From IMG/VR virus record IMGVR_UViG_3300031949_000092, positions 1-40,442 of that record: a stretch of DNA of 40,442 bases; one strand, written 5' to 3'. The notes under the pieces were generated by a model. It was not told the origin of the DNA and searched no databases. It was given only the letters and a program-made list of their open reading frames with translations. Numbering within the stretch: the first letter of the stretch is position 1; every line of letters begins with the position of its first letter. Both the position numbers and the translations under genes were made by a program. The DNA comes from a virus. Positions 128 through 35,653 of the stretch are shown piece after piece.

Positions 128-1725
128 ACTGCTTGTTTTGTTTTATTGGGGTCACCGTTGTCAAAAATTCTCGAACGCCATTTAGCTGTTTCATTAGTAG
201 ATTGGTCGTCAGCCTCGACCTTATCAATTCCGTAACTTGTATTATCTCGCCAACCGATATATAAATCTGTTCCAAATGCTTTTACCGCACCAATTTTCAA
301 AGTAGTCCCCTGAGTCGTGCCTGTTGAAATTATGTAGGGAAAATTAAGCGTATTTGTCAACTCCGATGCTTGACTGCCAAACTCATAAACACCCTGCTCA
401 ACTCCAGAAGCGTCATCAGTTACCGCACCGTAGCCTATCACAAGCCTTTCCTCGTATTCGTCAATGGCCCCTGGATAGACCTCGATTATTTTAGTATTTA
501 CCAGCTTCGGCACTTTATCTATTATTTTTGTAAAGGGTTTGCTTCCCGTATAAACCGCACCCCGATTCCCGTAAACGCCCACTATCTCGTTCCTATAAGA
601 CCTTGCGGCATTAGGTGCGCCCATAGGCAAGGGTTCCGCATAGTTGTAGGCGCTTTCCAACCCGTCCCAGAAAAAGCGTTTAGACTCCTCGGCTTCGCTG
701 AAACTCTGCCCTTTCCATGCTTCAACTACTAAATATTCTTCGACCGTATAGACGCTCCTTGCCTCAAATCCTGGGTCGAGCTTTATTTTAGTTGGGTTAA
801 AAGTCCCACCCAATCTGTCAAAGAAACCCAAATACCTCTCATTCCCTACAACCCAGCCCCCGAAGAACCTTGCCATCATGTGCCAGGTCGCACTTATCAA
901 AACCCCGTAGTTGACCGTAAACTCTGCACCCTCTAAATCCGTTGCGACTTCGGTATCAACTCCGCCATCCGCAACCGTGGTCGTAACGTGGAAATGGTAA
1001 CTCTCCCCCGGCTCCGTTCTTAAAGGAGAATCAAAAGTAAAAGTATTATCCCCGACCACTACTGAGCCGTTCACAATAGTTTCGCTCCCCACGCTTCTAT
1101 TGTTTACGTCATGTAAAGTAATTGTCCAATCTCCCGAACCCACAACGTCTATGTCTATAACTATTGAAACCACAGGGTCGCCCCCAGTTGACACGTTTGA
1201 AGTTGCCGTAAAGCTCTGCCTTGCCGTTGCCGCCTCGGAAATCGAAGTGGGTGGTACATAATCGGTTGCACCAGTTCCCCCACCTGTTGTTTGTAAATCC
1301 GAAGTGTTGTGCCAACTAGTCAAAGCGTCATCAAACGCCGGAGAATTATCTAAGGGAAAATACCTGCCTATATTTGTAGCCAAAGCATAATAAAGCCCGT
1401 TATCGTGGACTACCAAACCCTCGCCTGCACCTCCGCTTACCGTTCTTAATAAACTAACCGAGTCGGCGTTGCTTATCGCATAAATCTTGCCTGCTGAGTC
1501 GTAAGCATATCGATTGGTAGACCAAGGGCTACCGTCCTCGAAAAAGTAGGGAAGTCCAGTTACAGTAGTTGAGCTTATCTTGGTAGTTTTCTTGGCTAAA
1601 GTTAAATAATTGGGGTCAGAGAATATATTGGCGCATTTTATAAACCTTGCACTATTTTCAATTCCTGATTTAGAAGAAATTGTAGAAATACCCCCAGCCC
1701 AATTATTTATTTTGAGAGAAGCCAT
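1..1725 (-). CDS. Virion tail/baseplate-like structural protein: N-terminal 575 codons of a 618-aa wrap-around CDS that continues at 40315-40184
   Basis: I checked every minus-strand triplet from 1725 to 1 and found no stop. ATG is at 1725-1723 with an in-frame TAA upstream at 1737-1735. It is absent from the ORF track because it runs off the window edge. Confidence 0.85.
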   Translation of the reverse strand, partial: MASLKINNWAGGISTISSKSGIENSARFIKCANIFSDPNYLTLAKKTTKISSTTVTGLPYFFEDGSPWSTNRYAYDSAGKIYAISNADSVSLLRTVSGGAGEGLVVHDNGLYYALATNIGRYFPLDNSPAFDDALTSWHNTSDLQTTGGGTGATDYVPPTSISEAATARQSFTATSNVSTGGDPVVSIVIDIDVVGSGDWTITLHDVNNRSVGSETIVNGSVVVGDNTFTFDSPLRTEPGESYHFHVTTTVADGGVDTEVATDLEGAEFTVNYGVLISATWHMMARFFGGWVVGNERYLGFFDRLGGTFNPTKIKLDPGFEARSVYTVEEYLVVEAWKGQSFSEAEESKRFFWDGLESAYNYAEPLPMGAPNAARSYRNEIVGVYGNRGAVYTGSKPFTKIIDKVPKLVNTKIIEVYPGAIDEYEERLVIGYGAVTDDASGVEQGVYEFGSQASELTNTLNFPYIISTGTTQGTTLKIGAVKAFGTDLYIGWRDNTSYGIDKVEADDQSTNETAKWRSRIFDNGDPNKTKQAVKLEITFEPLVSGDSVTPVYDINRSGTFTSGTAVTTVGETEAN

Positions 1726-1742
1726 TACTCTATTTTACACCA
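1726..1742 (-). promoter_or_regulatory. -10-like box TAAAAT placed 6 nt from the ATG (leaderless-type promoter variant)
   Basis: Minus strand reads TGGTGTAAAATAGAGTA-ATG. Spacing matches the TATAAT family. No SD is present. Confidence 0.5.
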
Positions 1743-2708
1743 TCAGGAGAGGGTACTCGCCCAAACTTTCAAACGTGCGTCTCCTGAAGTTTTCTTTCTT
1801 CTTACGAGTTGCGAGGAGTTTCTGTCTCTGTAGTCATTAATCAAGCCAATCAAACCGCCTGCCCAGTTCGGTTCTTTTCTTGCCTGATTCTTGCTTACGT
1901 TAAAGTCCCCTGTCCAAAACATATTGTTCCAGTTTTGAGCCTTAGTCAGGCTTTGCCTGAACGAGGCGTAATAATCAGCCAATGCTCCCCAAGCTGGTAA
2001 CTCGTGGTATTCCTCTGGAATCTCAGAACATTGTCCAATCTTATAAGTAACCGTACTTTCCGTGGATTCTTCAAACACCGATTCTAGCTCTAAAATTAAC
2101 GCTGATGTGACTGATCCTATGCGATACCAACTTCCGCGGGGTTCTCCGTTAGAATCCGTAAGTACAAAAAAATCCCCAGGTCTGACATTGGAAAGTGTAC
2201 TCCATGCTGCAGTTCCAGCCTCAGTAACAGTCTCATCATTTTCGGTTACAACTACTGTTCCAGTAGAATAATCTGTGCGTACCAGACCGCCCCCACGCAG
2301 AGAATATTCAATTGTTCCTGTATAAACCGCTTGTGGAATTGGATATATTCCTACATCTCGCTGCCTCTTATAAAAATAAAGTGGAATTGCACCCGCCTGT
2401 ATATCAAGAGCGTTAAGTCTTGCCCATTCATTGTTTGAGTGAATTGGCGTTAAAGGATAGTCCACCGAGCCTATCGTAATCACCAAGCTCTCGATTTCTT
2501 TTATTTCGGGCGGATAGTGATAATACTGTTGCGAAGCTACGGTACTGAAAGTTCTCACAATTTCTGTTAAGTAAGATGGAAGTTTACTAACAACGAAGTT
2601 ATCCCTTGAATTTATATGCCTTTTGAAAAAGGTTTGAGATGCGGTTGAAGTGTCCTTTCCCGCTCCGTCCTGAGCAATTCGTATTTGGTCTCCAAAAGTT
2701 AATCTCAT
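1743..2708 (-). CDS. Virion structural protein (possible adaptor or tail-tubular protein)
   Basis: 321-aa ORF in the tail module with a leaderless-type promoter at its ATG. I recognised no motif. Confidence 0.7.
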   Translation of the reverse strand: MRLTFGDQIRIAQDGAGKDTSTASQTFFKRHINSRDNFVVSKLPSYLTEIVRTFSTVASQQYYHYPPEIKEIESLVITIGSVDYPLTPIHSNNEWARLNALDIQAGAIPLYFYKRQRDVGIYPIPQAVYTGTIEYSLRGGGLVRTDYSTGTVVVTENDETVTEAGTAAWSTLSNVRPGDFFVLTDSNGEPRGSWYRIGSVTSALILELESVFEESTESTVTYKIGQCSEIPEEYHELPAWGALADYYASFRQSLTKAQNWNNMFWTGDFNVSKNQARKEPNWAGGLIGLINDYRDRNSSQLVRRKKTSGDARLKVWASTLS

Positions 2709-2723
2709 ATTTAATTATAACAC
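2709..2723 (-). promoter_or_regulatory. Extended -10 promoter fused to the ATG (GTGTTATAATTAAAT-ATG)
   Basis: TGnTATAAT with 5 nt to the A of the ATG at 2708. Identical copies are at 9272 and 13966. Confidence 0.65.
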
Positions 2724-4529: not shown

Positions 4530-7067
4530 TTATATTTCATATCCTACTACCGTTACATAAACATTACCTGCCGTAGTCGTAATTATTAGATCAGCTGCAT
4601 CCTCTCCTGAATACCAAGGCACAGGGAATGACTGTACATATCCCGAATTTGCCGCCATCTCCATCTTCCAAATAGCACTATCTCCTCCCGCTAAATCATC
4701 TTCTAAAGTAACTGTTGCTGCTGCTGAAATCCCAATAAAAATGCTTGTGATATACCATCTCTTGCCTGCCGCAGGACTCCAGATTATACCGTCTGTTACC
4801 GCACCGGCATTTGTGTAGTATTTCTTGACATGAACCGTTGCTTCTGCCGCCAAATCCTGCTCAGGAACTCCGGGCTTAGTGTATTGGTATCCCCTTAAAT
4901 CAAAATAAGCATTTACCCTATCATTTGCGGCTACTGCTGCTGAGGCTGAAAGTGCTTTACCACCGATTTTTACAGGTTCTCCTGCATCTATTCCGTCGTG
5001 GGCAACGTCCCCTGAAATGCTCGCCCCGTCAGAGGCAGTATTGTCCCAATCATCCATAATAGCTAATGAAGTTGCGGTTGCAGTTGTGTCAATCTCAATA
5101 GCGTCAAGAACTGCGTTGTCGGTTGCCGAAAGGTTGGCAGTAACCGTTCCTGTAACAGTTACGTCATTGTTTACTCCGAGATTGACAACCAAACCCCCTA
5201 CTGTTTCGAGTGCAGCCTGAGTCGCCTCGGTTGCTATTTCAATGGCTGCGGTATCGGCTAAAATTGCCGTAGTGTCGGCCAGTATTGCGTCAGAATTGAA
5301 GTCCTGCACCCACAATGCACCCTCGGCTGTACCTCTTAATCCTATCCAGTCGGCTTCGATAGGGGTAACTGTGGCAAGAGCGTCATCACGCTCCATTACA
5401 GTAGCATTTCCAATTATGGTTGCGGGAGTAGCGACATCTTCGGAATAAACGGTATCATCAATAAGCTGGAGTGCGGTTAATGCGTCACCATCAACTTGAA
5501 CCGCAAAAGTTCCGGCGTTTGTTACTGCATGGGAGGGAACAGAAGCAAGCGATACTGGCTGAGTTGCTTGCCAGAAAGTTCCCGTTACAGCAACCGTCGG
5601 CATTGTCAAAACGTCTACTTGGACTTCAGTTCCTGTAATAGCTCCGTTTAGTGCAGTTAGACCTGCGTTTGTTACAGCCACAGATTCTGAATCAAGGGTT
5701 ATTTTTACATCGGCAGTTTGTCCTGCACCACCAGTTACAGTTACTACATCAGTTGAGGTTAAGTCACGAATGTCTAAGTTGCTTGCGTCAACGGTTAAAG
5801 AGCCTCCGGCATCGCTAATATGTAAAGCACCGTTCGCCGTTATGTTAAAAGGTGCAACATCGCCATCGGTTACCGTTTGGGGAACGGATTGATAAAGCCC
5901 CCCGACAAGTAGGTGTGAAGAAGTATTGTCCGTCCAGTCAGCGTCGTCAATGTAAACCGCATTGTCCAAAAGTTCTACTGCGGTTTGGATTGAAGTCGTG
6001 TCCCCTGCTATCGTGTCTAAATCTGCCGTTTGTAGTGCCAAGTCTGTCGCGGCGGTATCGGGAAGTGTTGCTAGGGTAACATCATTATTAACCCCCAAAT
6101 CAACCGTAACCGTTCCTGCGATTGAAACTGGTTGCGTGGCTTGCCAAAAGGTTCCGGTAACAGCTAGTGAAGCATTAAGAATATCCACCTGAAGGTCGCC
6201 CGAAGTATCAGTATGAACTGCAAAGATATTACTGCCGTCAGTTCCCATAGCAACCGTTCCTGTCGGGTCGGCATTTATATCTCCATCTGAATATTGAGTC
6301 CCTGCACCAGCACCTACATAATCACCATCTGTATTAGTCAAACGAACCGCTAGGGGATTGGAATTTGTGTAATCAAAAACAGTAGTCAGAATAGCAGCGG
6401 TACCGTCTTTTATCATCCCCTGTTGTGTTCCGTCTGTTTGATTAAGTGCAATATCATCTAATACCGCGTTATCTGTTGCTGATAAATTAGCAGTAACTAC
6501 ATCGGTTGCGGTTAAGTTTCTTATATCTAAGTCGGTTGCGGAAACAACCGTTGTTCCTGAAGGGATAACCCACAAAGCGCCATTGGCGTCGACCCTTAAT
6601 CCAATCGCATCTCCCTCAACCGGCGTGAGTGCGGCTAAAGCATCATCCCTTATAGCAACAGCTAAAGTACCTGTTGGAGTTGCCCCCAATGCCGCGTCGA
6701 CTGCGTATTGCGTCCCGCCGCCAACAGAGTCTATATAAGCCCCCGCGGAAGTAACTAACTGGACATAAGCTGCACCGTAGTCTGTTCCTCTTTGGGCTAC
6801 GTTGTCTCCGTCGGTTGTTACTTGGGTAGCGGGGGTATCTGTTCGTATAAGATTAACGGCTGTTCCGACAGGGTTGGTCGCAGCAACAGCATCTTCCGTA
6901 TATTCCGTTCCACCGGCGATAGAAACGTCTGAGGAGTCTAAATGGACATATAAAGCGCCGGTTGCGGACTTTGCCTGTATGGCAATAGAGTCGCCAAGAG
7001 TATCGTCTAGGGCTATCAATCCTTTGACCGCATTCGGGTCTATCGGGGCCTGAGTTTGGATTCCCAT
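4530..7067 (-). CDS. Large tail fibre/spike protein with shuffled internal repeat modules
   Basis: 845 aa rich in T, A, D, G and V. Duplicated motifs include VTGTFWQATQPVS (x2), NLSATDNAVLD (x2), LGVNNDVT (x2) and RDDALA..TPxExDxIGLR..GALWV (x2). Confidence 0.8.
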   Translation of the reverse strand: MGIQTQAPIDPNAVKGLIALDDTLGDSIAIQAKSATGALYVHLDSSDVSIAGGTEYTEDAVAATNPVGTAVNLIRTDTPATQVTTDGDNVAQRGTDYGAAYVQLVTSAGAYIDSVGGGTQYAVDAALGATPTGTLAVAIRDDALAALTPVEGDAIGLRVDANGALWVIPSGTTVVSATDLDIRNLTATDVVTANLSATDNAVLDDIALNQTDGTQQGMIKDGTAAILTTVFDYTNSNPLAVRLTNTDGDYVGAGAGTQYSDGDINADPTGTVAMGTDGSNIFAVHTDTSGDLQVDILNASLAVTGTFWQATQPVSIAGTVTVDLGVNNDVTLATLPDTAATDLALQTADLDTIAGDTTSIQTAVELLDNAVYIDDADWTDNTSSHLLVGGLYQSVPQTVTDGDVAPFNITANGALHISDAGGSLTVDASNLDIRDLTSTDVVTVTGGAGQTADVKITLDSESVAVTNAGLTALNGAITGTEVQVDVLTMPTVAVTGTFWQATQPVSLASVPSHAVTNAGTFAVQVDGDALTALQLIDDTVYSEDVATPATIIGNATVMERDDALATVTPIEADWIGLRGTAEGALWVQDFNSDAILADTTAILADTAAIEIATEATQAALETVGGLVVNLGVNNDVTVTGTVTANLSATDNAVLDAIEIDTTATATSLAIMDDWDNTASDGASISGDVAHDGIDAGEPVKIGGKALSASAAVAANDRVNAYFDLRGYQYTKPGVPEQDLAAEATVHVKKYYTNAGAVTDGIIWSPAAGKRWYITSIFIGISAAATVTLEDDLAGGDSAIWKMEMAANSGYVQSFPVPWYSGEDAADLIITTTAGNVYVTVVGYEI

Positions 7068-7083
7068 TAACTAATTATAGCAC
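7068..7083 (-). promoter_or_regulatory. Extended -10 promoter fused to the ATG (GTGCTATAATTAGTTA-ATG)
   Basis: TGnTATAAT with 6 nt to the ATG at 7067. An identical copy is at 10049. Confidence 0.65.
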
Positions 7084-9001: not shown

Positions 9002-9271
9002 TTAATTACTTACTTCTAATTGCGGTTTGGGTTCCATTTTCTCGTCAGTTTTCGGTTCGGCTTTAGGAAGTTCGTCTTTATAGGAGAGTTTTATGGCGGG
9101 CCGCTTATCGACTGCATAAACTAGGTTCTCGACCACTGGTACCAATACCTGTGATTCTTGGACAATTAAGATAATGTTATTCACTCTTAGGAAGTTAGCC
9201 AGAAGCTGGTCTGCGGGAACTCTTTTTGGTTTTGCGGTTTCTTCCGCTTTTTTGGCGTTTTTATCTGCCAT
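9002..9271 (-). CDS. Hypothetical structural-module protein
   Basis: 89-aa ORF with a leaderless-type promoter at its ATG. Confidence 0.6.
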   Translation of the reverse strand: MADKNAKKAEETAKPKRVPADQLLANFLRVNNIILIVQESQVLVPVVENLVYAVDKRPAIKLSYKDELPKAEPKTDEKMEPKPQLEVSN

Positions 9272-9286
9272 ATTTAATTATAACAC
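9272..9286 (-). promoter_or_regulatory. Extended -10 promoter fused to the ATG (GTGTTATAATTAAAT-ATG)
   Basis: Identical to the copies at 2709 and 13966. The upstream TAG stop overlaps its first G. Confidence 0.65.
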
Positions 9287-9819
9287 TATTGTGCTGTTAC
9301 TGCTGCATCGGAACTCAAAGGAAGCCATCTAAGGAAAAACTCTATGACTCCGCTTGTCGGTTCTGTAGTTGTTGTATAAACATATTCTATATCGGTATTA
9401 GCTCCATTTTTAGCTACTATTACGAATGGTGAATGATAAAGTGTCTCAAGCGTGGTGGGTTCTGTTATCCTGCCTGCCGCTGATGTTGAAAGTGTCAGAG
9501 CCGCTGCGGCTAAACCTTTCTTAACAAGGAGCGAACCAACCGCTGCTGAAGATACTGTAGTTCCTGTATTAAGAGTTATGTTAACTTGCGCCGTTTGGTC
9601 GTTTAACCTCCAATAAGCTGCCGTTTGGTTTGAACCAAGAACTGTGGTTACAACTCCGTATAAAGCCCTAACTTCAATATTCCCAGTAATTCTCCACAAA
9701 GGAATCACATCGGTTTCATTACTTCCGTCAGTTGTTTTTGAAACCCTTGAAGTAAGTCCGTCTTCTGTTATCGGAACCACATTTGCATCCCTCCAAAAAG
9801 AATCAGCTAGAGTTGGCAT
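9286..9819 (-). CDS. Hypothetical virion protein
   Basis: 177-aa ORF rich in Thr, Ala and Ser, located in the structural module. Confidence 0.65.
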   Translation of the reverse strand: MPTLADSFWRDANVVPITEDGLTSRVSKTTDGSNETDVIPLWRITGNIEVRALYGVVTTVLGSNQTAAYWRLNDQTAQVNITLNTGTTVSSAAVGSLLVKKGLAAAALTLSTSAAGRITEPTTLETLYHSPFVIVAKNGANTDIEYVYTTTTEPTSGVIEFFLRWLPLSSDAAVTAQ

Positions 9820-9835
9820 AATTTAATTATATCAC
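9820..9835 (-). promoter_or_regulatory. Extended -10 promoter fused to the ATG (GTGATATAATTAAATT-ATG)
   Basis: TGnTATAAT with 6 nt to the ATG at 9819. The TAA stop of the upstream gene lies inside the TATAAT hexamer. Confidence 0.65.
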
Positions 9836-10048
9836 TTTCTCTTTTAACCTTATCAGTTTAATTGTTTCACCGAAAGCTTTGTAAATATTGTGCCAGAGGC
9901 TCATTAAACGAGTTAGATTGTCAGTTTGCTCAATCGTGAAGTTATAAGTATCGGAGAATTTATAAGAAGCGACACCATCATCGTTGAACTCAATTTCACC
10001 TTCAATAATTAGTCCGTCAAATTCCAACTTGAAGTCGTGAGTGTACAT
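9827..10048 (-). CDS. Hypothetical protein
   Basis: 73-aa ORF with a leaderless-type promoter at its ATG. Confidence 0.6.
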   Translation of the reverse strand: MYTHDFKLEFDGLIIEGEIEFNDDGVASYKFSDTYNFTIEQTDNLTRLMSLWHNIYKAFGETIKLIRLKEKVI

Positions 10049-10064
10049 TAACTAATTATAGCAC
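10049..10064 (-). promoter_or_regulatory. Extended -10 promoter fused to the ATG (GTGCTATAATTAGTTA-ATG)
   Basis: Identical to the copy at 7068. Confidence 0.65.
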
Positions 10065-10071
10065 TATGAAG

Positions 10072-11073
10072 TTAATCTTCGTCTACATAGACCTCTGTAG
10101 CGTTCAAGGTGCTTCTGTAATTACCAGAGTGAATATCTGTTGCTAATACGTCCATCATGTTTGTGCAAGCGAAGTAGTTTCCACAAAGAGAAGTTACACC
10201 AGTTGCTCCCGCAGGAATACGAACTGCTGCTGCGAAAGTATTGGCACTATCTCTGAAAGAATTATCTCTTATAAGAGTTCCAACCGTTGTTGACGCTGCG
10301 TAAAAGTCAATTCCGTAGTCAGTACCGTCACTTGCTTCAAATTCATTCCTTCTAATAACTGGTCTCTGAACTGTCCTTCCACCGCCTGGTGTTATATAAA
10401 TTCCTGCGTTATCCCACTCTTCAAAGATATTGTCCTCAATAAGGACGTTTGCTGAGCACCCGTCAAGCACTAATCCGTAAGTTCCTTCATTTCCGCCTCT
10501 AAATACACAGTCGTGAACCCAGCAGTTTGCAGAGTTTCCGCCACTCCCCGTCTTTCCTGAACCTGTTACATTCACACCGTCACCGATATACATACCTCCG
10601 TATCCGCCTCCACCGTCAAAAAGGAATCCTGCTACCTCGCAGCTTCTTGCCATTAGCAAAAATGAAAATCCGCTCACGCTCACGTTTCCAACCATAGGAT
10701 ACTTAGTTGTTGCGTCACCCGGTCTGAATTGGTTTTCCCATCCGTAAGTTGCCGAATAAATCCTAACAGTTGGAGTTGTAACTAATACATTTTCCTTCCA
10801 CTTGCCTTGAGTCGAGGATGCCGGCATTACAATAACCGTATCGCTCCTATCTGCCTCACAAGCATCATGGGCTGCCTGAATTGAAGTTTGAACAGCCGTT
10901 GAACCGTCTGGGTAAGTTACATCATGTTCTGCCTTGAACCTGTCATATTCTGCATGGTCTGAGTGAATGGCATAATAGACATTACCCCAGGGATTGAATC
11001 CACCGCCCACGGTGTCACTACCGAGCCATTTTGCTCCTCTATGTACTGCTGGAAAATAATTTCTTGCTAACAT
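10072..11073 (-). CDS. Right-handed parallel beta-helix (pectate-lyase-fold) protein; candidate tailspike or depolymerase
   Basis: Repeated PbH1-like turns are visible: NCWVHDCVFRGGNEG.., ANVLIEDNIFEEWDNAGIY.., PVIRRNEFEAS.., TLIRDNSFRD. Confidence 0.6.
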   Translation of the reverse strand: MLARNYFPAVHRGAKWLGSDTVGGGFNPWGNVYYAIHSDHAEYDRFKAEHDVTYPDGSTAVQTSIQAAHDACEADRSDTVIVMPASSTQGKWKENVLVTTPTVRIYSATYGWENQFRPGDATTKYPMVGNVSVSGFSFLLMARSCEVAGFLFDGGGGYGGMYIGDGVNVTGSGKTGSGGNSANCWVHDCVFRGGNEGTYGLVLDGCSANVLIEDNIFEEWDNAGIYITPGGGRTVQRPVIRRNEFEASDGTDYGIDFYAASTTVGTLIRDNSFRDSANTFAAAVRIPAGATGVTSLCGNYFACTNMMDVLATDIHSGNYRSTLNATEVYVDED

Positions 11074-11075
11074 AT

Positions 11076-11210
11076 TTAAACCTTTCCTGTCCCTTCACAA
11101 TTCGGACAATCGCTTCCATCTTCTAACTTACCTGATTCACACTCAGGACAAATACCATCAGAGATTTTTACTTCTAATTTCTCTTTTTTTTCTTTCTTTT
11201 TACCTGCCAT
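11076..11210 (-). CDS. 44-aa zinc-ribbon protein (CPEC...CPNC), not in the ORF track
   Basis: ATG at 11210, and the frame checked open to the TAA at 11078-11076. It has a Lys/Glu-rich N-terminus and two CxxC pairs. Confidence 0.55.
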   Translation of the reverse strand: MAGKKKEKKEKLEVKISDGICPECESGKLEDGSDCPNCEGTGKV

Positions 11211-11215
11211 AAATT

Positions 11216-11249
11216 AAAAAAGCACCTCGTAAGGTGCTAATTCCTTACG
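11216..11249 (-). terminator. Intrinsic terminator with an overlapping alternative (antiterminator-like) hairpin
   Basis: Minus strand reads CGTAAGG-AATTAGCA-CCTTACG-AGGTGCT-TTTTT. The hairpins AGCACCT/AGGTGCT (followed by a U-run) and CGTAAGG/CCTTACG are mutually exclusive. Confidence 0.7.
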
Positions 11250-11307
11250 GTATCCTGAATATTAAGCAAAAGCTTTTTTGGTTTTTAAACCGCTCTCGTC
11301 AATACCG

Positions 11308-12039
11308 TTATCTGTCTATCTCTAAGTAAACTAATGGGTATTCTGTTGCTACTACTGTGGTCGGTCCAGTTACACCGAACATTGGCTCGGTTACTGCGTC
11401 AACTACTTCGTATTGTCCCGTTCCGGTTCCTGCTCCGAATGTTATCTTGGAACCGATTTGGTCGTTTGCCTCGTCAGCCCATACTGAGCAAGGTCCCCAG
11501 GTTTGGATGTATCCATATTCACTTGTTCCAAGTCCGCCTACCATTATCGGGACTCCTGCCGGAACATAAGTTTGAGTTGTACTACTTTGAACCAGAAGCT
11601 TGTCATATCTGTTGTAAACAAGGTCTGCGTTTGCCTCAGATACTGCTCCTGCGGTATCAACAGCTTCCTTTAAGAAAACCTCAAGTGTTCCGCTTGTAGA
11701 AGATTGAGCATTGTGACCTTCAATCGGATATGCCCTGCCCTCTCCTGTTCCGTCATTCACTACCAGCCAGCCGTCCTTGTATTGCTCTGCCGTTGCCGCC
11801 GTACCTCCGAGAGTTACTTTGACGCTTTTGTCGTTTACCGCCGGTGCTGTCTGGAAAGAAAGGTTATTATGATTAGCAATTGCTGCCGCTCCCGCTCCCA
11901 ACTTGCCTCTACCTATTGCGGTTGCGCAGAAAGCATAATGAAACACTCTGCCGAAAGCATCCTCGTAGCGCGTACCTAAAGATACTTGTCCTGCCGTTGT
12001 TCCTTGTGCTCCTGGTAATATTGCTGCTAGTTTACTCAT
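11308..12039 (-). CDS. Auxiliary head protein (decoration or cement candidate)
   Basis: 243 aa, starting 1 nt after the MCP stop. AGGAG lies 6 nt upstream of its ATG, and a terminator follows the gene. Confidence 0.55.
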   Translation of the reverse strand: MSKLAAILPGAQGTTAGQVSLGTRYEDAFGRVFHYAFCATAIGRGKLGAGAAAIANHNNLSFQTAPAVNDKSVKVTLGGTAATAEQYKDGWLVVNDGTGEGRAYPIEGHNAQSSTSGTLEVFLKEAVDTAGAVSEANADLVYNRYDKLLVQSSTTQTYVPAGVPIMVGGLGTSEYGYIQTWGPCSVWADEANDQIGSKITFGAGTGTGQYEVVDAVTEPMFGVTGPTTVVATEYPLVYLEIDR

Positions 12040-12040
12040 A

Positions 12041-13150
12041 TTAGACTCCTGTTATTGAATGGCCTTGACCGTTTACGTTTGGCCTCCAAGTTGCGATTTG
12101 ACCGATTACATAGAATCTTGCGATTGTTCCTGCCTGGTCGGGCATCATAAGGGGCGGTTGATAAAACCATCCGTTAAAGTTTGAGGGCATTTCCGCTTGT
12201 GCCAAACTCTCCGTTGCGTCTAAAGAACCCAGGTTTACTTTTTCAAGTCCAAGTTTTGCGTATTCGCTCGGTACTACCGTTCTTCCGAACCATCCGAGGG
12301 AATCTTCATTTAATTTATACCAAACAGCAGATGTCGCCTTTTTGTCCTTGATTACCGGCATTCCCCTGTGGTGGAGTGAAAGGAATCCTGCCGCTCCGCC
12401 CAATTTAGCATCAGCAGAACCCTCTCCTCTGACGCTCATCCTTGGAAAACCGCCTGAGTTGTAGTTGGCCCTGACCTGAGGGTCTAAAAGTTCCTCGTAA
12501 AGACTCCAAACTGCAAAAGTTGTTAAGTTAAGATTAGGTACTGCCGCGGCCTCTCCGCCCTTTGCGCAAGCGTCATCCAAAGTAGCAAGCTTGGCTAGAG
12601 TCATTGTTCCCCAGCTTGTGTAGGTTGCATCCAAGACGTCGTAGCTTGACCTTGTTTGTCCCCCGATTGTCGCTGCATTGGTTCCGTTGTCAACTATTGC
12701 CTGAAGGCCGTTTGGAGTATCTCCTGCTCCCGTCCCGTAAGCTGCCTCGGCTATCGCATCAACAGCTTCAAGTGCAGCCTCTTCATACTTATAGGCATCC
12801 AAAGGAATAACTCCCTCCGGTCCTGCGTTTGCGAAAGACTCTAACATTATGCTCACTTTGGGCTGCGTTCCTGCTGTGTGGGCGAATGAAAGAGTTATTT
12901 CATTGTCTTCTGCTGAAGAGTTTAAATTCTCAAGTCCGGTAAACCATTCAAATTGCGAGGATTGCTGGTACTTAATTGTCCAGTCCATTACAACTCCCCT
13001 GAATGGCTTTGCCTTGCCCATCAATCGGGAAAGATAAGTCGGAGCTTCTAATATAGTATCTACGACTTTCCCATGAAGCGCTCGTAATGTTTTACCCTCT
13101 ACTCTGTTTGAAGGGTTGATTCCATCGGGCGTTGTTGAAAATCCTGCCAT
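12041..13150 (-). CDS. Major capsid protein (HK97-fold type, inferred)
   Basis: 369 aa, positioned after the portal and scaffold genes. Size and composition are typical, but no search was run. Confidence 0.7.
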   Translation of the reverse strand: MAGFSTTPDGINPSNRVEGKTLRALHGKVVDTILEAPTYLSRLMGKAKPFRGVVMDWTIKYQQSSQFEWFTGLENLNSSAEDNEITLSFAHTAGTQPKVSIMLESFANAGPEGVIPLDAYKYEEAALEAVDAIAEAAYGTGAGDTPNGLQAIVDNGTNAATIGGQTRSSYDVLDATYTSWGTMTLAKLATLDDACAKGGEAAAVPNLNLTTFAVWSLYEELLDPQVRANYNSGGFPRMSVRGEGSADAKLGGAAGFLSLHHRGMPVIKDKKATSAVWYKLNEDSLGWFGRTVVPSEYAKLGLEKVNLGSLDATESLAQAEMPSNFNGWFYQPPLMMPDQAGTIARFYVIGQIATWRPNVNGQGHSITGV

Positions 13151-13160
13151 GTTTTATTCC

Positions 13161-13186
13161 AAAAAAAATCGGCTCCGTTGAGCCGA
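13161..13186 (-). terminator. Hairpin plus U8 between the scaffold and MCP genes
   Basis: Minus strand reads TCGGCTC-AACG-GAGCCGA followed by TTTTTTTT, ending 10 nt before the MCP ATG. Confidence 0.65.
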
Positions 13187-13205
13187 CTATTTTGTCGTTA
13201 GTATT

Positions 13206-13234
13206 ATTGTAAACTATCTGTCAAATATTAGCAA
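13206..13234 (-). promoter_or_regulatory. Sigma70-like promoter TTGCTA-N17-TACAAT upstream of the MCP leader hairpin
   Basis: -35 at 13234-13229, a 17-nt spacer, and -10 at 13211-13206. Confidence 0.45.
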
Positions 13235-13239
13235 ATCAG

Positions 13240-13965
13240 CTAGATATTGCCTGCCGCTATCTCTTCAAAGCTCTTCTCTTTTATATCCTTGTACTTAAAG
13301 CTTTCCCCTGTTTCCCTTACTTGGGTATTGCCGCTTATCGGTAAATCTGCCCCCGGCGGTCCTTCCAAAACTTGCGGGTGTGCGACCAATATATCTGAAA
13401 TGCTGGGAGTGTATTCAATCCCCTGTGACCTGTTTTGCTCAATCATCTTGCCTATAGCCAGAATAAGTTTCTTTCTTGCGTCATATCCGGCGTCGCCTTC
13501 TTTGGCCTCTTTCATTTGAGGAACTTTGCCTAGCTTCGAAAGCTGGTTGTACTGCGTGTACCAGCCTTGTACTATTCCGTTTATCCTCTCCTGCCTTTGT
13601 GTTTCGGATTGCTTTTCTTCCTTCTCGCCCTCCTCCTCCAGTTTGGCGAACCTTTGCTCCAGTTGCTCATTTACTATCTTTTTAAGAGCATCGGCATCTG
13701 TTGGTAGGGCTTCCTCTTGCTTCTTAGTCAGTCCAAGAGCATCTCCTATCTTCTGGATGACGGATTTGCTTACTTCCTGACTTACAACGCCCGATACGTC
13801 CTTAGTAATTGAATCTTTTAATGAAGCTACCTGCTCGTCTGAAAGTTGCGCTTGCGGTGTAGTCTGAGGTTGTTTCTCGCCTTGAGGTTGAACTTCCTTA
13901 GTCGGAACTTCCTTTGGTATCTCTTGGCCTTTATCCTCATTATTTTGAGCTTTATCGTCAGCCAT
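13240..13965 (-). CDS. Scaffolding protein
   Basis: 241 aa, highly charged (E, K, Q) and helical in character, located between the portal and MCP genes. Confidence 0.65.
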   Translation of the reverse strand: MADDKAQNNEDKGQEIPKEVPTKEVQPQGEKQPQTTPQAQLSDEQVASLKDSITKDVSGVVSQEVSKSVIQKIGDALGLTKKQEEALPTDADALKKIVNEQLEQRFAKLEEEGEKEEKQSETQRQERINGIVQGWYTQYNQLSKLGKVPQMKEAKEGDAGYDARKKLILAIGKMIEQNRSQGIEYTPSISDILVAHPQVLEGPPGADLPISGNTQVRETGESFKYKDIKEKSFEEIAAGNI

Positions 13966-13980
13966 ATTTAATTATAACAC
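13966..13980 (-). promoter_or_regulatory. Extended -10 promoter fused to the ATG (GTGTTATAATTAAAT-ATG)
   Basis: Identical to the copies at 2709 and 9272. Confidence 0.65.
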
Positions 13981-13982
13981 AT

Positions 13983-14144
13983 TTAAGCAGTTGCTTTGTG
14001 AACTGCTTCCATATGTTCATCCATCTTGGTAGGTTTCTTCCCACCCTTGATTAACCCGAATAATCCTTTTTGCTTTTTGCTGAGAGGTCTACCATTAGCC
14101 ATTCCCTCTTTTAACATTATTCCCGCCTTGTGTGGACTTAACAT
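13983..14144 (-). CDS. 53-aa Lys-rich protein, not in the ORF track
   Basis: The frame checked open from the ATG at 14144 to the TAA at 13985-13983. It has its own leaderless-type promoter. Confidence 0.5.
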   Translation of the reverse strand: MLSPHKAGIMLKEGMANGRPLSKKQKGLFGLIKGGKKPTKMDEHMEAVHKATA

Positions 14145-14159
14145 GATTTATTATAACAC
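14145..14159 (-). promoter_or_regulatory. Extended -10 promoter fused to the ATG (GTGTTATAATAAATC-ATG)
   Basis: TGnTATAAT with 5 nt to the ATG at 14144. Confidence 0.6.
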
Positions 14160-14166
14160 TAAGTTT

Positions 14167-16134
14167 CTAACGATTAAAAAGCTTGCTAATCGCACCCGTC
14201 GCTTTTCCAATCAGATTACGAGGCGAACCGCTGGGTACTTCACTAACCGCCTGTGGATTCTGAGGTGAGGGTTGCATTGGTGGTTGGGGTTGGTAAGGCC
14301 CTTGAGGATTACCGAAACTCATTAAGTTCTGTTGATTCATTCCCATTACTTGGTTGGCCACGTCCTGTAACTCCATTCCCTTAGCATACTTTTGGATATA
14401 CATTTCGGGGTTGGTCTGGAACATAAAAAGCATCTCGGCTCTTTTTTCGGCGTCGGTTCTACCTACATCTTGGAAGTAGTTAATAGGGTCGATTAAACCT
14501 AGAGTTGCTTCTTCTTTCGCCATGCGCTCTCGTTTTAGTTTGTCCGTTCCCGATGCCTTGATTGACACTTCCAGTCCATCCTCAATAACATCTGAAGTTA
14601 ACCTTTCTTGAACTTCTCCTCCTTGCCTACCTATTAGTAATTGAAAGTGCTGTGAAGTGTACCTCAATTTAAACATGTGCAAGAGTGCCTCGGCCATCTC
14701 TGTCGCTACCTTGTTTATAGCCAAATCAGAGAAATCATCGGCAATCGTAAAACTTGCCTCTCTTTGGATTTGGGTAGTTGTGGCAACGTCGCTTGTCAGC
14801 TCACCGCTTGCCGCACCCGATATATGAAGTTTCTCCTTCACTCTTTGCTTAGTCCTTTCCAAGTCACCGAACATGGCTTGGCTTGGCTGCTCCTTTTTAA
14901 TGAATGCGTGTACTTCTCCCAAATTGCCGTCTACGACAATATCCTCATCGGGGTCGTTCAAGTCCATCTCCTCAATGGTTTCCTTTTTAAGGCCGGACAT
15001 CGTTGAAAAGACGTGCTTGCCCCTCGCGTCGTCTATCATCTTGGTTATCTGCATTCCACGAGTGTCGTAATTGTCCTGAAGAAGCCTGTTCTCCTCTATG
15101 CGTGATATTTCGTCAAAAGCCGACTCGCCGTATTGCTCATAGCCCATGAATATAAACGGCTTCCTCGGCTTCCCGAAGTAGTTTCTGTAAACAGTCTTCA
15201 TCTCAACACCCGGAACCTGCATACCCATCATCGAGATTTGTGGTAGCATCTCATCCGATACCGGCTTTCCGTTGAAGAACGGCTTTTCCTCGCCGTCCCA
15301 GTCCCAGTTGGGGTTCTTCCTCTTGTCTAAGATGCTCTTCTCGCCCTTGCCGGCTTTCCAGAGTATCCCGCTCATGCTCTCGAACTCCGGCTCTTTGGGG
15401 TCGAAGTTCTCGGCCTTTTCTTTCCAGTCGAACCATATCTCCTGCACTTTTAAGTCGAACGCCCGACCCTCCTCGTCGTTGGTTTCCTTCCAACCTTTAT
15501 CCCTTGCGAAGTCCTTTAACTCATCCTCTTTCTCAGGGAATAAGATTATCCAATCGTAAAGGCACCTCTCTACCTCGTGGATGATGAGCTTCATGTATCT
15601 TTCGTTATTCTTGGTGGCGGAGGTGTCTATCTTTATATACTTAGCCGGTATGACTTCCCACTCAATATCGCCCAGCTTGCCCTTGCTTGAATTCCAGTAG
15701 TATTTAATTACTCCGGTTAAATCTAATGAATGCCGCCTGAAAGCTAGAGTAAGAAGTTGTTTAAGCTCGTCGCTTTGAAGAGTCTTGTTTACAGCCTCGC
15801 TGATTAAGTCGGCAACTTCGGTGGAAACCTGTGATTCAGCGCCGGGGTTAACGATTATGTCGGGAAGCCTCGAAAGGACTAAGGTACGAAGCGTGTCCTC
15901 GCCTTCCTTGATTACATTGTCTATGTACTTCTTCTCGTAGGTTTTTAATTCAACGTCATCTAACTGCCTGCCGAATAAATACTTTGTGTTGGTTTTGCGT
16001 CTTTCGGTAAGTTTCTTGGTCTTATCAAATTCGTCGTATTTCTTCTCGTACTGCTCAATAAAGAAAGCCAGCTTTTTATCCTCTAAGTCGAGATTTAATA
16101 CAGGGGCCGCCTCTTTTCCTTGTTCTTCTTCCAT
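14167..16134 (-). CDS. Portal protein
   Basis: 655 aa, located downstream of TerL (a 96-aa ORF intervenes) and upstream of the scaffold and MCP genes. It has a Pro/Gln-rich C-terminal tail. Confidence 0.75.
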   Translation of the reverse strand: MEEEQGKEAAPVLNLDLEDKKLAFFIEQYEKKYDEFDKTKKLTERRKTNTKYLFGRQLDDVELKTYEKKYIDNVIKEGEDTLRTLVLSRLPDIIVNPGAESQVSTEVADLISEAVNKTLQSDELKQLLTLAFRRHSLDLTGVIKYYWNSSKGKLGDIEWEVIPAKYIKIDTSATKNNERYMKLIIHEVERCLYDWIILFPEKEDELKDFARDKGWKETNDEEGRAFDLKVQEIWFDWKEKAENFDPKEPEFESMSGILWKAGKGEKSILDKRKNPNWDWDGEEKPFFNGKPVSDEMLPQISMMGMQVPGVEMKTVYRNYFGKPRKPFIFMGYEQYGESAFDEISRIEENRLLQDNYDTRGMQITKMIDDARGKHVFSTMSGLKKETIEEMDLNDPDEDIVVDGNLGEVHAFIKKEQPSQAMFGDLERTKQRVKEKLHISGAASGELTSDVATTTQIQREASFTIADDFSDLAINKVATEMAEALLHMFKLRYTSQHFQLLIGRQGGEVQERLTSDVIEDGLEVSIKASGTDKLKRERMAKEEATLGLIDPINYFQDVGRTDAEKRAEMLFMFQTNPEMYIQKYAKGMELQDVANQVMGMNQQNLMSFGNPQGPYQPQPPMQPSPQNPQAVSEVPSGSPRNLIGKATGAISKLFNR

Positions 16135-16150
16135 TATTTAATTATAGCAC
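16135..16150 (-). promoter_or_regulatory. Extended -10 promoter fused to the ATG (GTGCTATAATTAAATA-ATG)
   Basis: TGnTATAAT with 6 nt to the portal ATG. Confidence 0.65.
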
Positions 16151-16151
16151 T

Positions 16152-16442
16152 CTAGTTGACTTCGGGATTTCTTGTGTGAACCAGTCCAGCAAAGGTATAG
16201 TACATTCCGCAATTTTCCCAAGTGCCGTCGCGTCTTTGAACCGAGCCTTTGCATTTTAAAGTAGTATTGGGTATGTATGGAGAACCTCCAGGGACTATCT
16301 GAATTGCGTCGCCCTCGTACTCTATTATCGGTATGCGGCAATTAAAACAGAAGAACATCTTGCGCTTGTCGCCAAAGGCTTCGTTCTCGGAGTCTAACCA
16401 AATCACAACGGATTTTTTGATGCCTGGAGCTGACTTGCTCAT
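16152..16442 (-). CDS. Hypothetical Cys-containing protein between TerL and portal
   Basis: 96-aa ORF with CFNC plus two distal Cys residues. A leaderless-type promoter sits at its ATG. Confidence 0.6.
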   Translation of the reverse strand: MSKSAPGIKKSVVIWLDSENEAFGDKRKMFFCFNCRIPIIEYEGDAIQIVPGGSPYIPNTTLKCKGSVQRRDGTWENCGMYYTFAGLVHTRNPEVN

Positions 16443-16458
16443 TAATTAATTGTATCAC
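16443..16458 (-). promoter_or_regulatory. Extended -10 promoter fused to the ATG (GTGATACAATTAATTA-ATG)
   Basis: TGnTACAAT with 6 nt to the ATG. The TG is supplied by the TGA stop of TerL. Confidence 0.6.
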
Positions 16459-20803: not shown

Positions 20804-21101
20804 AAACCATCAACACTTTTCCGAACGGAACTATCCTGAATTGCTCACCCTCAATCTTGAAAGTCTCGAATCCGCCCGCTGAATGAACAAGTGTTTGTCC
20901 GACTTTTACCGGGGATTCGACTATTAGCTTTCTTTCTTCGTCATAATAGGAATCACCAACTTTCAGGACTTTTGCCAACTGTGGGAATTCATCAGCGACT
21001 ATTTCTATTCCTTCGCTTGAAGTTTTATCGAGAGGTTCGACGAGTATATATCCGGCGACAGGTATGAAGTTTTCTATTTTCATCGGTATATTTTTTACCA
21101 T
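20793..21101 (-). CDS. groES: GroES-type co-chaperonin (Cpn10)
   Basis: About 100 aa, overlapping groEL by 11 nt. The pattern GYILVEP...GIEIV...AKVLKVGD...VKVGQTLV resembles Cpn10 beta-barrel spacing. Confidence 0.65.
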   Translation of the reverse strand: MVKNIPMKIENFIPVAGYILVEPLDKTSSEGIEIVADEFPQLAKVLKVGDSYYDEERKLIVESPVKVGQTLVHSAGGFETFKIEGEQFRIVPFGKVLMVYGK

Positions 21102-21116
21102 AACCCTATTATATCA
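21102..21116 (-). promoter_or_regulatory. Extended -10 promoter fused to the groES ATG (TGATATAATAGGGTT-ATG)
   Basis: TGnTATAAT with 6 nt to the ATG. The upstream TAA stop lies inside the hexamer. Confidence 0.6.
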
Positions 21117-27816: not shown

Positions 27817-27973
27817 GTTGTCTTAAAAAAGTAGGAATGTCGGTTTTAGCTATTAAGTACTTTCTGCCGGCTTTTTGGAAAGGAAGCTTGCCGGCTTTAA
27901 CCCAGCGCCTTACAGTCATTGCGCTTACACGCATAATGTCAGCCGCTTCTCTAAGTGTGAGATAACCATTCAT
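27806..27973 (-). CDS. Xis/AlpA/MerR-type HTH DNA-binding protein (55 aa), not in the ORF track
   Basis: LTLREAADIMRVSAMTVRRWVKAGKLP..K.GRKYLI is the HTH_17/excisionase-like signature. A full promoter abuts its ATG. Confidence 0.7.
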   Translation of the reverse strand: MNGYLTLREAADIMRVSAMTVRRWVKAGKLPFQKAGRKYLIAKTDIPTFLRQHDK

Positions 27974-28009
27974 TACTTTATATATACACTAGTATATTTT
28001 ACTTGTCAA
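27974..28009 (-). promoter_or_regulatory. Consensus-like promoter TTGACA-N17-TATATA ending 7 nt from the ATG
   Basis: -35 at 28009-28004 and -10 at 27986-27981, followed by TAAAGTA and then the ATG at 27973. Confidence 0.7.
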
Positions 28010-34175: not shown

Positions 34176-34830
34176 AAATAAATTCCTCCTTTCTCATTCT
34201 CGGATTCATATAACTTTTAGTTTTTTTATGGCAGTCCACGCAAAGTGTCCTACCATTGTCAATAGCAAGTCGTAGTTCTGGAAATAAAGCAAAGGGTTTA
34301 ACGTGGTCAGCGTGCAAATCGGTATTACCCCTTACTCCACATTTAGTACAACTATAATTATCTCTAGTAAAAACGGCTATCCTCCACAAGAGATATTCCG
34401 TAGAAGTTCTAATTTTATGATTTAACGGAGTAATTCCACCCTTCCAAGATGGATTTTCTTTTCCACGATAATGTGGAAGTCTTCTTGCACTCCCTAATTT
34501 TTTATGTGTATTACTCATTTTTTTTCTAGTTTGTTTAGAAGATTTTTTACCATACATCGGATTTTTGTTACCCATTTTTGTTTCACTTAAATGTTTTTTA
34601 GTAATTTCGGTGTGTTTAAAACCTAATCCATTTTTGTTCCCTATAAGCTTCTTCCTTATTTTTATACGAGTTTCTGGTTTCATTGGATGTTCTTTGCCCT
34701 TCAGTGAGATAGAGTAACATTTATGACTACAAAATTTACTGTCTTTAAAGACAGGAGAAACTAAATATTTTTCTGAACAAGTTAAGCAAATTTTTTCAAC
34801 TTTAGCATAGTTCCATGGTCTATTTATCAT
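34168..34830 (-). CDS. HNH homing endonuclease with NUMOD-like repeats
   Basis: HADHVKPF...NGRTLCVDCHKKT is the HNH core. It also has repeated GKxHP/GNKNP..K motifs and the N-terminal CxxC..CSHKCY finger shared with 7809-8369. Confidence 0.8.
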   Translation of the reverse strand: MINRPWNYAKVEKICLTCSEKYLVSPVFKDSKFCSHKCYSISLKGKEHPMKPETRIKIRKKLIGNKNGLGFKHTEITKKHLSETKMGNKNPMYGKKSSKQTRKKMSNTHKKLGSARRLPHYRGKENPSWKGGITPLNHKIRTSTEYLLWRIAVFTRDNYSCTKCGVRGNTDLHADHVKPFALFPELRLAIDNGRTLCVDCHKKTKSYMNPRMRKEEFIYG

Positions 34831-34845
34831 ATATATATTTTATCA
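34831..34845 (-). promoter_or_regulatory. Extended -10 promoter fused to the HNH ATG (TGATAAAATATATAT-ATG)
   Basis: TGnTAAAAT with 6 nt to the ATG. The TG comes from the upstream TGA stop. Confidence 0.55.
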
Positions 34846-35052
34846 TGAAGAATAATTTGTCGAATTTACAGTAGATTTGGAGAAATTTACATTATTCACT
34901 TCACCACTCTCAATTATTAGTTTAGAAACCCCGTCTTCAAAGAGTAAGAAGCTACTATTATCTTCTAACAGTAAATAAAACTCATCTCCGCCAACCGATT
35001 TTTGATACCCCGTAGAGTTGGGGTTAGATTTAGAAAAGTTTGTAGAAACCAT
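34843..35052 (-). CDS. Hypothetical Ser/Asn-rich protein
   Basis: 69-aa ORF with a leaderless-type promoter at its ATG. Confidence 0.55.
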   Translation of the reverse strand: MVSTNFSKSNPNSTGYQKSVGGDEFYLLLEDNSSFLLFEDGVSKLIIESGEVNNVNFSKSTVNSTNYSS

Positions 35053-35067
35053 TAACTAATTATACAC
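35053..35067 (-). promoter_or_regulatory. -10 promoter fused to the ATG (GTGTATAATTAGTTA-ATG)
   Basis: TATAAT with an adjacent TG, 6 nt to the ATG at 35052. Confidence 0.6.
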
Positions 35068-35075
35068 GATGAAGA

Positions 35076-35423
35076 TTAACTGATTCCGAGGGATGCTCTA
35101 GCTATCTTATTCTCTGTATCCAAAGTATTTTTAAGAGCTTTTAAAGAAATTTCTGCTTCAAACGACCGCGCTGGTGGCGTCCCAGGAACTGCTGGTGCCT
35201 CACCAAGGGTGGTGGCAGCAATACTTTCTGGAGTTTGGCCTGCCATTCCACCAATTTGAGACACTTCGGTTGTAATATTAGGAGGCAAATTAGACGTTCC
35301 GGGAGCCGCCGGGCTCGTTTGCTCCAAAGCAGGTATGGACATTCCGCGCTTTTTTAAGGCCGCCGCCAAAGCTGAACCCCCACCTAATGCGTTTCCGAAG
35401 CTTCCTGAACTTTGATTCTCCAT
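35076..35423 (-). CDS. Hypothetical Gly/Ala/Pro-rich protein
   Basis: 115-aa ORF preceded by a structured leader. Confidence 0.6.
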   Translation of the reverse strand: MENQSSGSFGNALGGGSALAAALKKRGMSIPALEQTSPAAPGTSNLPPNITTEVSQIGGMAGQTPESIAATTLGEAPAVPGTPPARSFEAEISLKALKNTLDTENKIARASLGIS

Positions 35424-35478
35424 AAAAATACTCCGTCTTTTGAACGGAGTTATTTCTCCTTAATAAATTATAACACAC
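35424..35478 (-). promoter_or_regulatory. Extended -10 promoter, AAGGAG at the 5' end, terminator-like hairpin, U-run, then AUG
   Basis: Minus strand reads GTGTGTTATAAT-TTATT-AAGGAGAAATAA-CTCCGT-TCAAAAG-ACGGAG-TATTTTT-ATG. The architecture matches 39429-39481. Confidence 0.6.
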
Positions 35479-35482
35479 GAAG

Positions 35483-35653
35483 TTACTTCTTCTTGGCTAA
35501 ACTCTTGTCTTGGTATAATTCTTTTCTTACAAGGTGTTTAACAAGTTCGCTTTGCGACATTCCATTCTTTTTACAATAAGATTGCATATCCTCAAATACA
35601 TCCTGTGGAAAAGAAAAAGAAGTTATAACGTTTCTATCAATTGCTTCTGACAT
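35483..35653 (-). CDS. Ribbon-helix-helix (Arc/Mnt/CopG-type) regulator
   Basis: I chose the ATG at 35653 (MSEAIDRNVITSFSFPQDVFEDMQSYCKKNGMSQSELVKHLV...), which gives a beta-strand then two-helix RHH layout. A promoter abuts this ATG. Confidence 0.65.
   Translation of the reverse strand: MSEAIDRNVITSFSFPQDVFEDMQSYCKKNGMSQSELVKHLVRKELYQDKSLAKKK

Follow-up and report, generated by a model that had tools for sequence, protein, structure and literature searches.

The repeated sequence box that precedes a subset of genes in the viral record IMGVR_UViG_3300031949_000092 (IMG/VR; all 40,442 nt were analyzed and are referred to here as the window) is probably an extended -10 promoter of leaderless transcription units. 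The window, a contig assembled from run SRR9005073 and from JGI/ENA samples, represents an almost complete phage genome of ~40 kb (GC content, ~40%) in which almost every gene is on the minus strand, and the box is found at 13 gene starts, where 5 or 6 nt separate the hexamer from the ATG (Table 1). These copies had been listed in the first-pass annotation, and all of them were recovered on the minus strand with every coordinate holding, including the identical trio before the genes starting at 2708, 9271 and 13965 and the identical pair before 7067 and 10048. The form proposed for the box, GTGnTATAAT, describes most copies but not all: at 35052 and 1725 the GTG abuts the hexamer and the "n" of TGn is missing, and the copy at 21101 lacks the first G. 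The hexamer is exactly TATAAT in 10 of the 13 boxes and is otherwise TACAAT or TAAAAT, and TG lies one base 5' of the hexamer in 11 of them.

The box is strongly enriched in the window and is tied to start codons. Matches to GTGNTATAAT number 10, all on the minus (coding) strand, versus 0.25 expected from dinucleotide shuffles of the window, and TGNTATAAT occurs 13 times versus 2.25 in the shuffles. More than half of the minus-strand TATAAT hexamers (11 of 21) precede the ATG of a real gene by 5 to 7 nt, whereas ~0.1 would be expected to do so with ~65 gene starts in 40 kb. A simple consensus scan of the window for paired -35 and -10 elements gave no enrichment over shuffles, as expected if the boxes are promoters without a -35 element. 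Three further perfect TGNTATAAT boxes occur away from gene starts. One (31802-31810, minus strand) falls within the CHAP-like gene at 31480-32250, and two (35511-35519 and 39675-39683, plus strand) are antisense to minus-strand genes; all three could drive antisense or internal transcripts.

The same association is found throughout the phage family, represented by 80 related IMG/VR loci fetched via alignment of the portal protein. Of the TGNTATAAT boxes in these loci, 273 are on the coding strand and 14 on the opposite one, and 40% lie 4 to 8 nt before an ATG that opens an open reading frame (ORF), compared with 3.4% of random positions. Hexamers are most often 6 nt away from the next ORF-opening ATG, a sharp peak (68 cases, with 120 within 5 to 9 nt) that matches canonical spacing between a -10 element and the transcription start; a second, small group lies at ~22 to 25 nt, with a Shine-Dalgarno (SD) sequence in between, and a third at ~40 to 48 nt. 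Among 1,824 called genes of the family, 127 have TGnTANNNT ending 6 nt from the start codon and the background is ~3 per offset, although family-wide counts of this kind may be somewhat inflated by a gene caller that favors ATG and longest-fit starts. The proposal that the motif is specific to start codons and to one strand is thus upheld both against shuffles of the window and against random positions in the relatives.

The identity of the box was assessed with a frequency matrix for which gene starts were selected solely by TANNNT at 5 to 9 nt, leaving all remaining positions unconditioned. These positions show T at -17 (44%), R at -16 (66%), T at -15 (62%), G at -14 (50%) and T/A/A at -10 to -8, giving the consensus TRTGnTATAAT. 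They reproduce the extended -10 (TRTG) consensus of sigma-A promoters, an extended -10 element having been suggested from the window sequence, and do so without a -35 element: neither the family matrix nor the consensus scan of the window contained a signal in the -35 region, an absence at the level of sequence only.

Genes that carry the box differ from their neighbors in how translation is likely to begin. Fourteen starts are robust leaderless candidates, comprising the 13 boxed starts and the start at 35653, all on the minus strand, and two further candidates (27973 and 35684, the latter on the plus strand) bring the total to 14 to 16. All of them begin with ATG, GTG and TTG starts being confined to the other gene classes, and they lie 7 to 23 nt from the upstream stop codon. 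The SD cores GGAG, GAGG and AGGA are absent from every one of their 5- to 7-nt spacers, in agreement with the claim that boxed genes lack an SD. The promoters appear to be very tightly packed, as upstream stop codons are embedded in two boxes: the TGA in the TGATATAAT copy (9827-9829, in the box at 9826-9835, minus strand) and a TAA within the TATAAT at 21109-21111 (box at 21108-21116, minus strand). The leading G of the box before 9271 is also the final base of the TAG stop codon of the gene upstream.

About 12 other window genes have an SD, and the examples given earlier for internal genes (7405, 12039, 34175 and 33232) are correct. Most of the remaining genes overlap the upstream stop codon or start at most 2 nt from it, which indicates translational coupling; many such coupled genes are devoid of both SD and promoter, and coupled genes lack the box. 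SD cores are also enriched 5 to 9 nt before the starts of the 1,824 called family genes, indicating that both modes of initiation coexist in the family. The division into two modes, leaderless versus SD-led or coupled, therefore stands in outline but is too simple, as a class of leaders with a hairpin and a U-run also exists.

Comparison of orthologous genes separates the box from the start codon that it usually accompanies. Among the 76 portal genes of the family, the box is fused to the ATG in ~24, a few have an SD, and in ~45 the same box is followed by 15 to 20 nt, a GC-rich hairpin, a U-run and the ATG, forming a leader of 40 to 50 nt. The distance from box to AUG thus shifts between ~6 and ~45 nt among portal orthologues and the box is kept at the head of the gene, which argues that it acts as a promoter and not as a translation or RNA signal tied to the AUG. 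The leaderless arrangement recurs in 17 of 26 scored homologues of the 13965 gene and in 11 of 15 of the 16442 gene, counting the window gene in both cases. In a close relative of the window phage, TATAAT is kept at six orthologous junctions, but the base at "n" and the spacer differ from those in the window, the spacer both in sequence and in length (5 versus 6 nt). Furthermore, the units that lie beyond the reach of translational coupling (the ribbon-helix-helix [RHH] regulator gene at 35653 and the genes at 35684 and 27973) have the same spacing of 6 to 7 nt, two of them with a -35 element at 17 nt.

The first-pass annotation had also described three promoters with a full consensus close to a start codon. 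Two of these (27974-28009 and 35654-35689) were confirmed, with 7 nt to the ATG, but the promoter before 30821 is classed as short-leadered and not leaderless because its leader is 13 nt long and contains a weak AAAGG. The region at 35651-35689 looks like a genetic switch region. The plus-strand box of the 35684 gene overlaps the RHH promoter, so that the two form a back-to-back pair of putative leaderless promoters.

From these features we infer where the 5' ends lie, which polymerase and sigma factor act and how the transcripts are translated. The box would be a sigma-70/sigma-A-type extended -10 element with the consensus TRTGnTATAAT, recognized by the RNA polymerase holoenzyme of the host, and the preferred transcription start, 6 to 7 nt past the hexamer, would be the A of the ATG. 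Each boxed gene would then come first on a transcript of its own that begins at the AUG, i.e., a leaderless mRNA, and ribosomes would bind this AUG with no need of an SD. Individual promoters would be packed into intergenic gaps of 7 to 23 nt, sometimes overlapping the upstream stop codon, and the intervening genes would depend on an SD, stop-start coupling or a structured leader. Because no cistron but the first on an RNA can be leaderless, genes needing independent and efficient initiation may each have been given a promoter of their own. The reading is considered likely, and every prediction that it makes for the sequence was borne out.

Several points nevertheless count against it, in addition to the bias of the gene caller. 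The four sites with a 5-nt spacer require the polymerase to start 6 nt after the hexamer. Most units have no terminator between them, which implies that polycistronic read-through RNAs are made as well, and the box, being A/U-rich, could also aid internal initiation or re-initiation. Furthermore, the only relative with an assigned host, a distant phage of TM7 (Saccharibacteria), uses TGnTAnAAT promoters with SD leaders of ~25 nt, and the phage GroEL is equidistant from the GroELs of candidate phyla radiation (CPR) bacteria and of Chloroflexi.

Read-through is the basis of the alternative that survives best, although it is unlikely. The boxes would be real promoters, but proteins would be made mainly from read-through RNA by 70S re-initiation or scanning at the A/U-rich box, and leaderless translation would be minor or absent. 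The short gaps to the upstream stop codon (just 7 to 23 nt), the scarcity of intervening terminators and the many clearly coupled window genes with no SD or promoter all fit this explanation. Coupling, however, needs no perfect TGnTATAAT at a fixed 6 nt, as the coupled genes without a box illustrate, and the first genes that cannot be coupled (35653, 35684 and 27973) share the spacing between -10 element and ATG.

It is less probable still that the boxes are phage-specific late promoters for a phage-modified polymerase, whose transcripts would again be leaderless. Models for such a system are the late promoters of T4 (TATAAATA with gp55) and a factor that prevents recognition of the -35 element, known from Thermus phage P23-45. 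Boxes without a -35 element cluster in the structural module and promoters of the regulatory region have one, which suggests two classes. The box is nonetheless an ordinary host-type consensus that also precedes the early-region genes at 34830 and 35052, and no sigma-like or polymerase-binding protein was recognized, although many small ORFs are unannotated. A promoter of the T4 type was rejected, because the consensus is TGnTATAAT and not TATAAATA and no sigma-like protein was found. Searches of the window proteins against Pfam, PHROGs and PDB sequences returned no sigma factor, RNA polymerase or antiterminator, with the same proviso for small ORFs. Proteins of 701 aa (36430-38535, minus strand) and 481 aa (28966-30411, minus strand) had no match in these three databases; they are presumably replication proteins, though a polymerase-type function is possible.

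An RNA-level signal within polycistronic RNA, whether it served to generate 5'-AUG ends by processing or to bind ribosomes or a protein without an SD, would also account for a strictly strand-specific box immediately 5' of the AUG, but it is very improbable. The box matches the extended -10 consensus of sigma-A promoters down to the single base that follows TG and the upstream TRTG positions; in relatives it is located 20 to 55 nt from the ATG before SD or hairpin leaders; both in the regulatory region and in CPR genomes it is paired with a proper -35 element 17 nt away; and it has no Rfam match.

The leaders that separate the promoter from the start codon form a distinct class. A hairpin and U-run ending ≤22 nt from the start codon are present in 70 of 1,600 unique upstream regions, versus 1.85 expected from shuffled sequences and 1 of 732 gene-internal stretches. 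In these leaders the -10 box is followed by a small hairpin (P1), then by a terminator-like hairpin (P2), the U-run and the ATG. P1 is a helix of 3 to 5 bp between a segment 5' of P2 and the base of the 5' arm of P2, often with the loop AAUUUA or ACACA. As P1 and P2 share nucleotides, they are mutually exclusive; the predicted folding energies are -4.7 to -5.7 kcal/mol for P1 in nascent RNA and -13 to -16 kcal/mol for P2 in full leaders. The complementarity that forms P1 is specific to the cognate hairpin, with a mean of 3.10 in 69 instances versus 1.94 ± 0.17 when segments were swapped, a value reached in none of 1,000 permutations. The paired sequences vary (GAGG/CCTC, CGAG/CTCG, GGAC/GTCC, AGC/GCT and CGAC/GTCG). 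The possibility that the AGGAG found 5' of leader hairpins is a distant SD was rejected, since the segment covaries with the arm of the terminator and frequently bears no resemblance to an SD (e.g., CGAG/CTCG and CGAC/GTCG).

This leader is the usual one of the major head gene, for which none of 58 homologues is leaderless and at least 30 have the hairpin leader, and it is present on about half of the portal genes of the family. In the window it precedes four genes, those starting at 39428, 35423, 13150 (major head) and 11210. No relevant Rfam match to it was obtained at the gathering threshold or at an E value of ≤1. The overlapping hairpins are read as a putative attenuator or antiterminator-terminator element, or possibly as a 5' stabilizer.

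Genes recognized in the window, in addition to those in Table 1, encode tail fibre proteins, a NinG-like nuclease and YopX, and no tRNA genes were found. Megablast of the region against GenBank phages yielded no match and hence no close relative there. A tblastn search with the portal protein gave two distant matches only, the TM7 phage and a Manatee Spring virus, and with the large terminase only distant matches to Mu-like nuclease domains, which are uninformative about the host. The window proteins define a large family of uncultured contigs of 38 to 42 kb. The GroES/GroEL pair (19217-21101, minus strand) is common to most relatives and to the distantly related TM7 phage DolZOral124_53_65, which carries a Cpn60 gene and is of similar size (~39 kb).

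Table 1. Gene starts with candidate promoters, leader cassettes and recognized genes in the window
Feature	Positions	Strand	Details
Gene start (A of ATG) 1725	1723..1740	minus	GTG-TAAAAT, spacer agagta; long tail-fibre-like ORF, open for 575 codons up to the window edge
Gene start 2708	2706..2723	minus	GTGTTATAAT, spacer taaat; 321-aa tail fibre protein
Gene start 7067	7065..7083	minus	GTGCTATAAT, spacer tagtta; 845 aa
Gene start 9271	9269..9286	minus	GTGTTATAAT, spacer taaat; 89 aa
Gene start 9819	9817..9835	minus	GTGATATAAT, spacer taaatt; 177 aa
Gene start 10048	10046..10064	minus	GTGCTATAAT, spacer tagtta; 73 aa
Gene start 13965	13963..13980	minus	GTGTTATAAT, spacer taaat; 241 aa
Gene start 14144	14142..14159	minus	GTGTTATAAT, spacer aaatc; 53 aa
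Gene start 16134 (portal)	16132..16150	minus	GTGCTATAAT, spacer taaata
Gene start 16442	16440..16458	minus	GTGATACAAT, TACAAT variant, spacer taatta; 96 aa
Gene start 21101 (GroES-like)	21099..21116	minus	TTGATATAAT (also given as TGATATAAT), spacer agggtt
Gene start 34830 (HNH endonuclease)	34828..34845	minus	TGATAAAAT, TAAAAT variant, spacer atatat
Gene start 35052	35050..35067	minus	GTG abutting TATAAT, spacer tagtta; 69 aa
Full promoter, RHH regulator	35651..35689	minus	TTGCAT, 17 nt, TATAAT, 7 nt, ATG 35653
Divergent promoter	35672..35686	plus	TATAAT, spacer ataata, ATG 35684; 104 aa
Full promoter	27971..28009	minus	TTGACA, 17 nt, TATATA, 7 nt, ATG 27973; 55 aa
Leader cassette, ATG 35423	35421..35475	minus	TGTTATAAT; P1 GGAG/CTCC; P2 CTCCGT/ACGGAG; U-run
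Leader cassette, ATG 39428	39426..39481	minus	TATAAT; P1 GGAG/CTCC; P2 CTCCAGC/GCTGGGG; U-run
Leader cassette, major head, ATG 13150	13148..13234	minus	TTGCTA, 17 nt, TACAAT; P1 CGAC/GTCG; P2 13188-13167; U8
Leader, ATG 11210	11208..11262	minus	Overlapping hairpins 11249-11228 and 11238-11221, then U-run
Small terminase	18258-17779	minus	
Large terminase	17825-16455	minus	
Portal	16134-14167	minus	655 aa
Major head protein	13150-12041	minus	
GroES-like protein	21101-20793	minus	102 aa
GroEL	20803-19217	minus	528 aa
RHH regulator	35653-35483	minus	
HNH endonuclease	ATG at 34830	minus	220 aa

The available evidence suggests CPR bacteria as hosts of the phage, although the host is unproven. The TM7 phage relative DolZOral124_53_65 has a genome of 38.8 kb and a portal protein 22.6% identical to that of the window phage. 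One related 39.8-kb contig was binned with a Patescibacteria metagenome-assembled genome, and other relatives were placed in Brocadia and Gammaproteobacteria bins; the presence of related whole-phage contigs in such disparate bins makes binning unreliable for host assignment. Assignment from the phage GroEL was also rejected, because its identity to CPR3, WWE3, Levybacteria-type and Chloroflexi GroELs is alike (42 to 44.5%). As the phage uses both modes of initiation, its host must have a working anti-SD sequence. Loss of the anti-SD is reported for part of the Parcubacteria (PMC9297842).

Some cellular CPR loci, fetched around GroEL, have gene starts resembling those of the phage. Three Levybacteria-type loci (L087, L091 and L092), whose GroELs are 77 to 82% identical to named Levybacteria proteins, contain no SD core 4 to 11 nt upstream of any of their 55 genes, and in 14 of these genes a TANNNT box is separated from the ATG by exactly 6 nt (P about 1e-7), with starts that include TTGACA-17-TAGACT-6-ATG. 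The sampled Levybacteria-type loci thus look as if leaderless gene organization is pervasive. A WWE3 locus (L085) and a CPR3 locus (L086) look similar, and a WWE3-like locus (L090) uses SDs. No description of leaderless genes in CPR, Patescibacteria or Saccharibacteria was found in the literature searched. It is tempting, but at present rather doubtful, to propose that the phage family mirrors CPR hosts in which leaderless initiation is the default and each gene has one promoter, and that the hairpin leader of the portal and major head genes is a new kind of switch, acting by antitermination or attenuation to time or boost late expression.

Parts of this arrangement have counterparts in well-studied phages and promoters. 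The cI mRNA of phage lambda, transcribed from PRM, is leaderless, the promoter placing +1 on the AUG. Like the RHH gene at 35653 with its divergent partner at 35684, cI is a regulator in a divergent switch region; lambda has one leaderless gene, whereas the window phage has ~15, mostly structural. The TRTG motif, or "-16 region," of Gram-positive sigma-A promoters was reportedly described by Voskuil and Chambliss in 1998. Such extended -10 promoters share with the phage box the TG one base 5' of TATAAT, the preceding T and R and the lack of a -35 element, but the classical examples have ordinary 5' untranslated regions and the phage box is fused to the start codon. Start-associated sequences of Cluster K mycobacteriophages, said to have been reported by Pope and coworkers in 2011 to contain a ribosome-binding site and thought to be translational, are likewise short conserved repeats just upstream of start codons in a subset of phage genes. 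The window motif differs in being a -10 box without an SD.

The closest experimental parallels come from Deinococcus-Thermus. In Deinococcus radiodurans, TANNNT lies 6 to 7 bp upstream of about one-third of ORFs and was shown experimentally to be the -10 element of leaderless genes (PMC12340547), with a spacing requirement and with a boost from a -35 element at 17 bp (Zhong et al. 2025, PMC12340547). The phage resembles this system in the distance of TANNNT from the start codon, the lack of an SD and the accompanying class of SD-led genes. It differs in its full TGnTATAAT, its ~40% GC, the location of boxes in 7- to 23-nt gaps of the structural module and a host from another, probably CPR, lineage. 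Leaderless transcriptomes also occur in Actinobacteria, e.g., Mycobacterium tuberculosis (Cortes 2013, as cited in PMC12641261). Among phages, the summary in PMC3594737 attributes mostly leaderless middle and late mRNAs to Thermus thermophilus phage phiYS40 (Sevostyanova et al. 2007) and reports that it shifts the levels of host IF2 and IF3. On that account phiYS40 is similar to the window phage in its leaderless mRNAs, but it is an unrelated, large phage with a Thermus host.

Given the Deinococcus and phiYS40 precedents, the mechanism is already of a known kind, and predicted leaderless starts adjacent to a -10 element are seen here in a new, uncharacterized phage family that may infect CPR bacteria. 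If the promoter reading is true, the structural module would be read from a dozen or more separate host-type promoters, each giving an mRNA with the AUG at its 5' end, in contrast to the usual single late operon, and annotation of start codons and promoters in the family would become much more reliable, as the box would mark the true start. The apparently leaderless, SD-free starts of some CPR lineages and the overlapping-hairpin leader provide further leads. Experimental knowledge of the signals for transcription and translation is almost entirely lacking for CPR bacteria, for which the short boxes would represent ready-made minimal expression signals, and leaderless translation would be a major mode in the hosts of this phage family, which are probably CPR bacteria.

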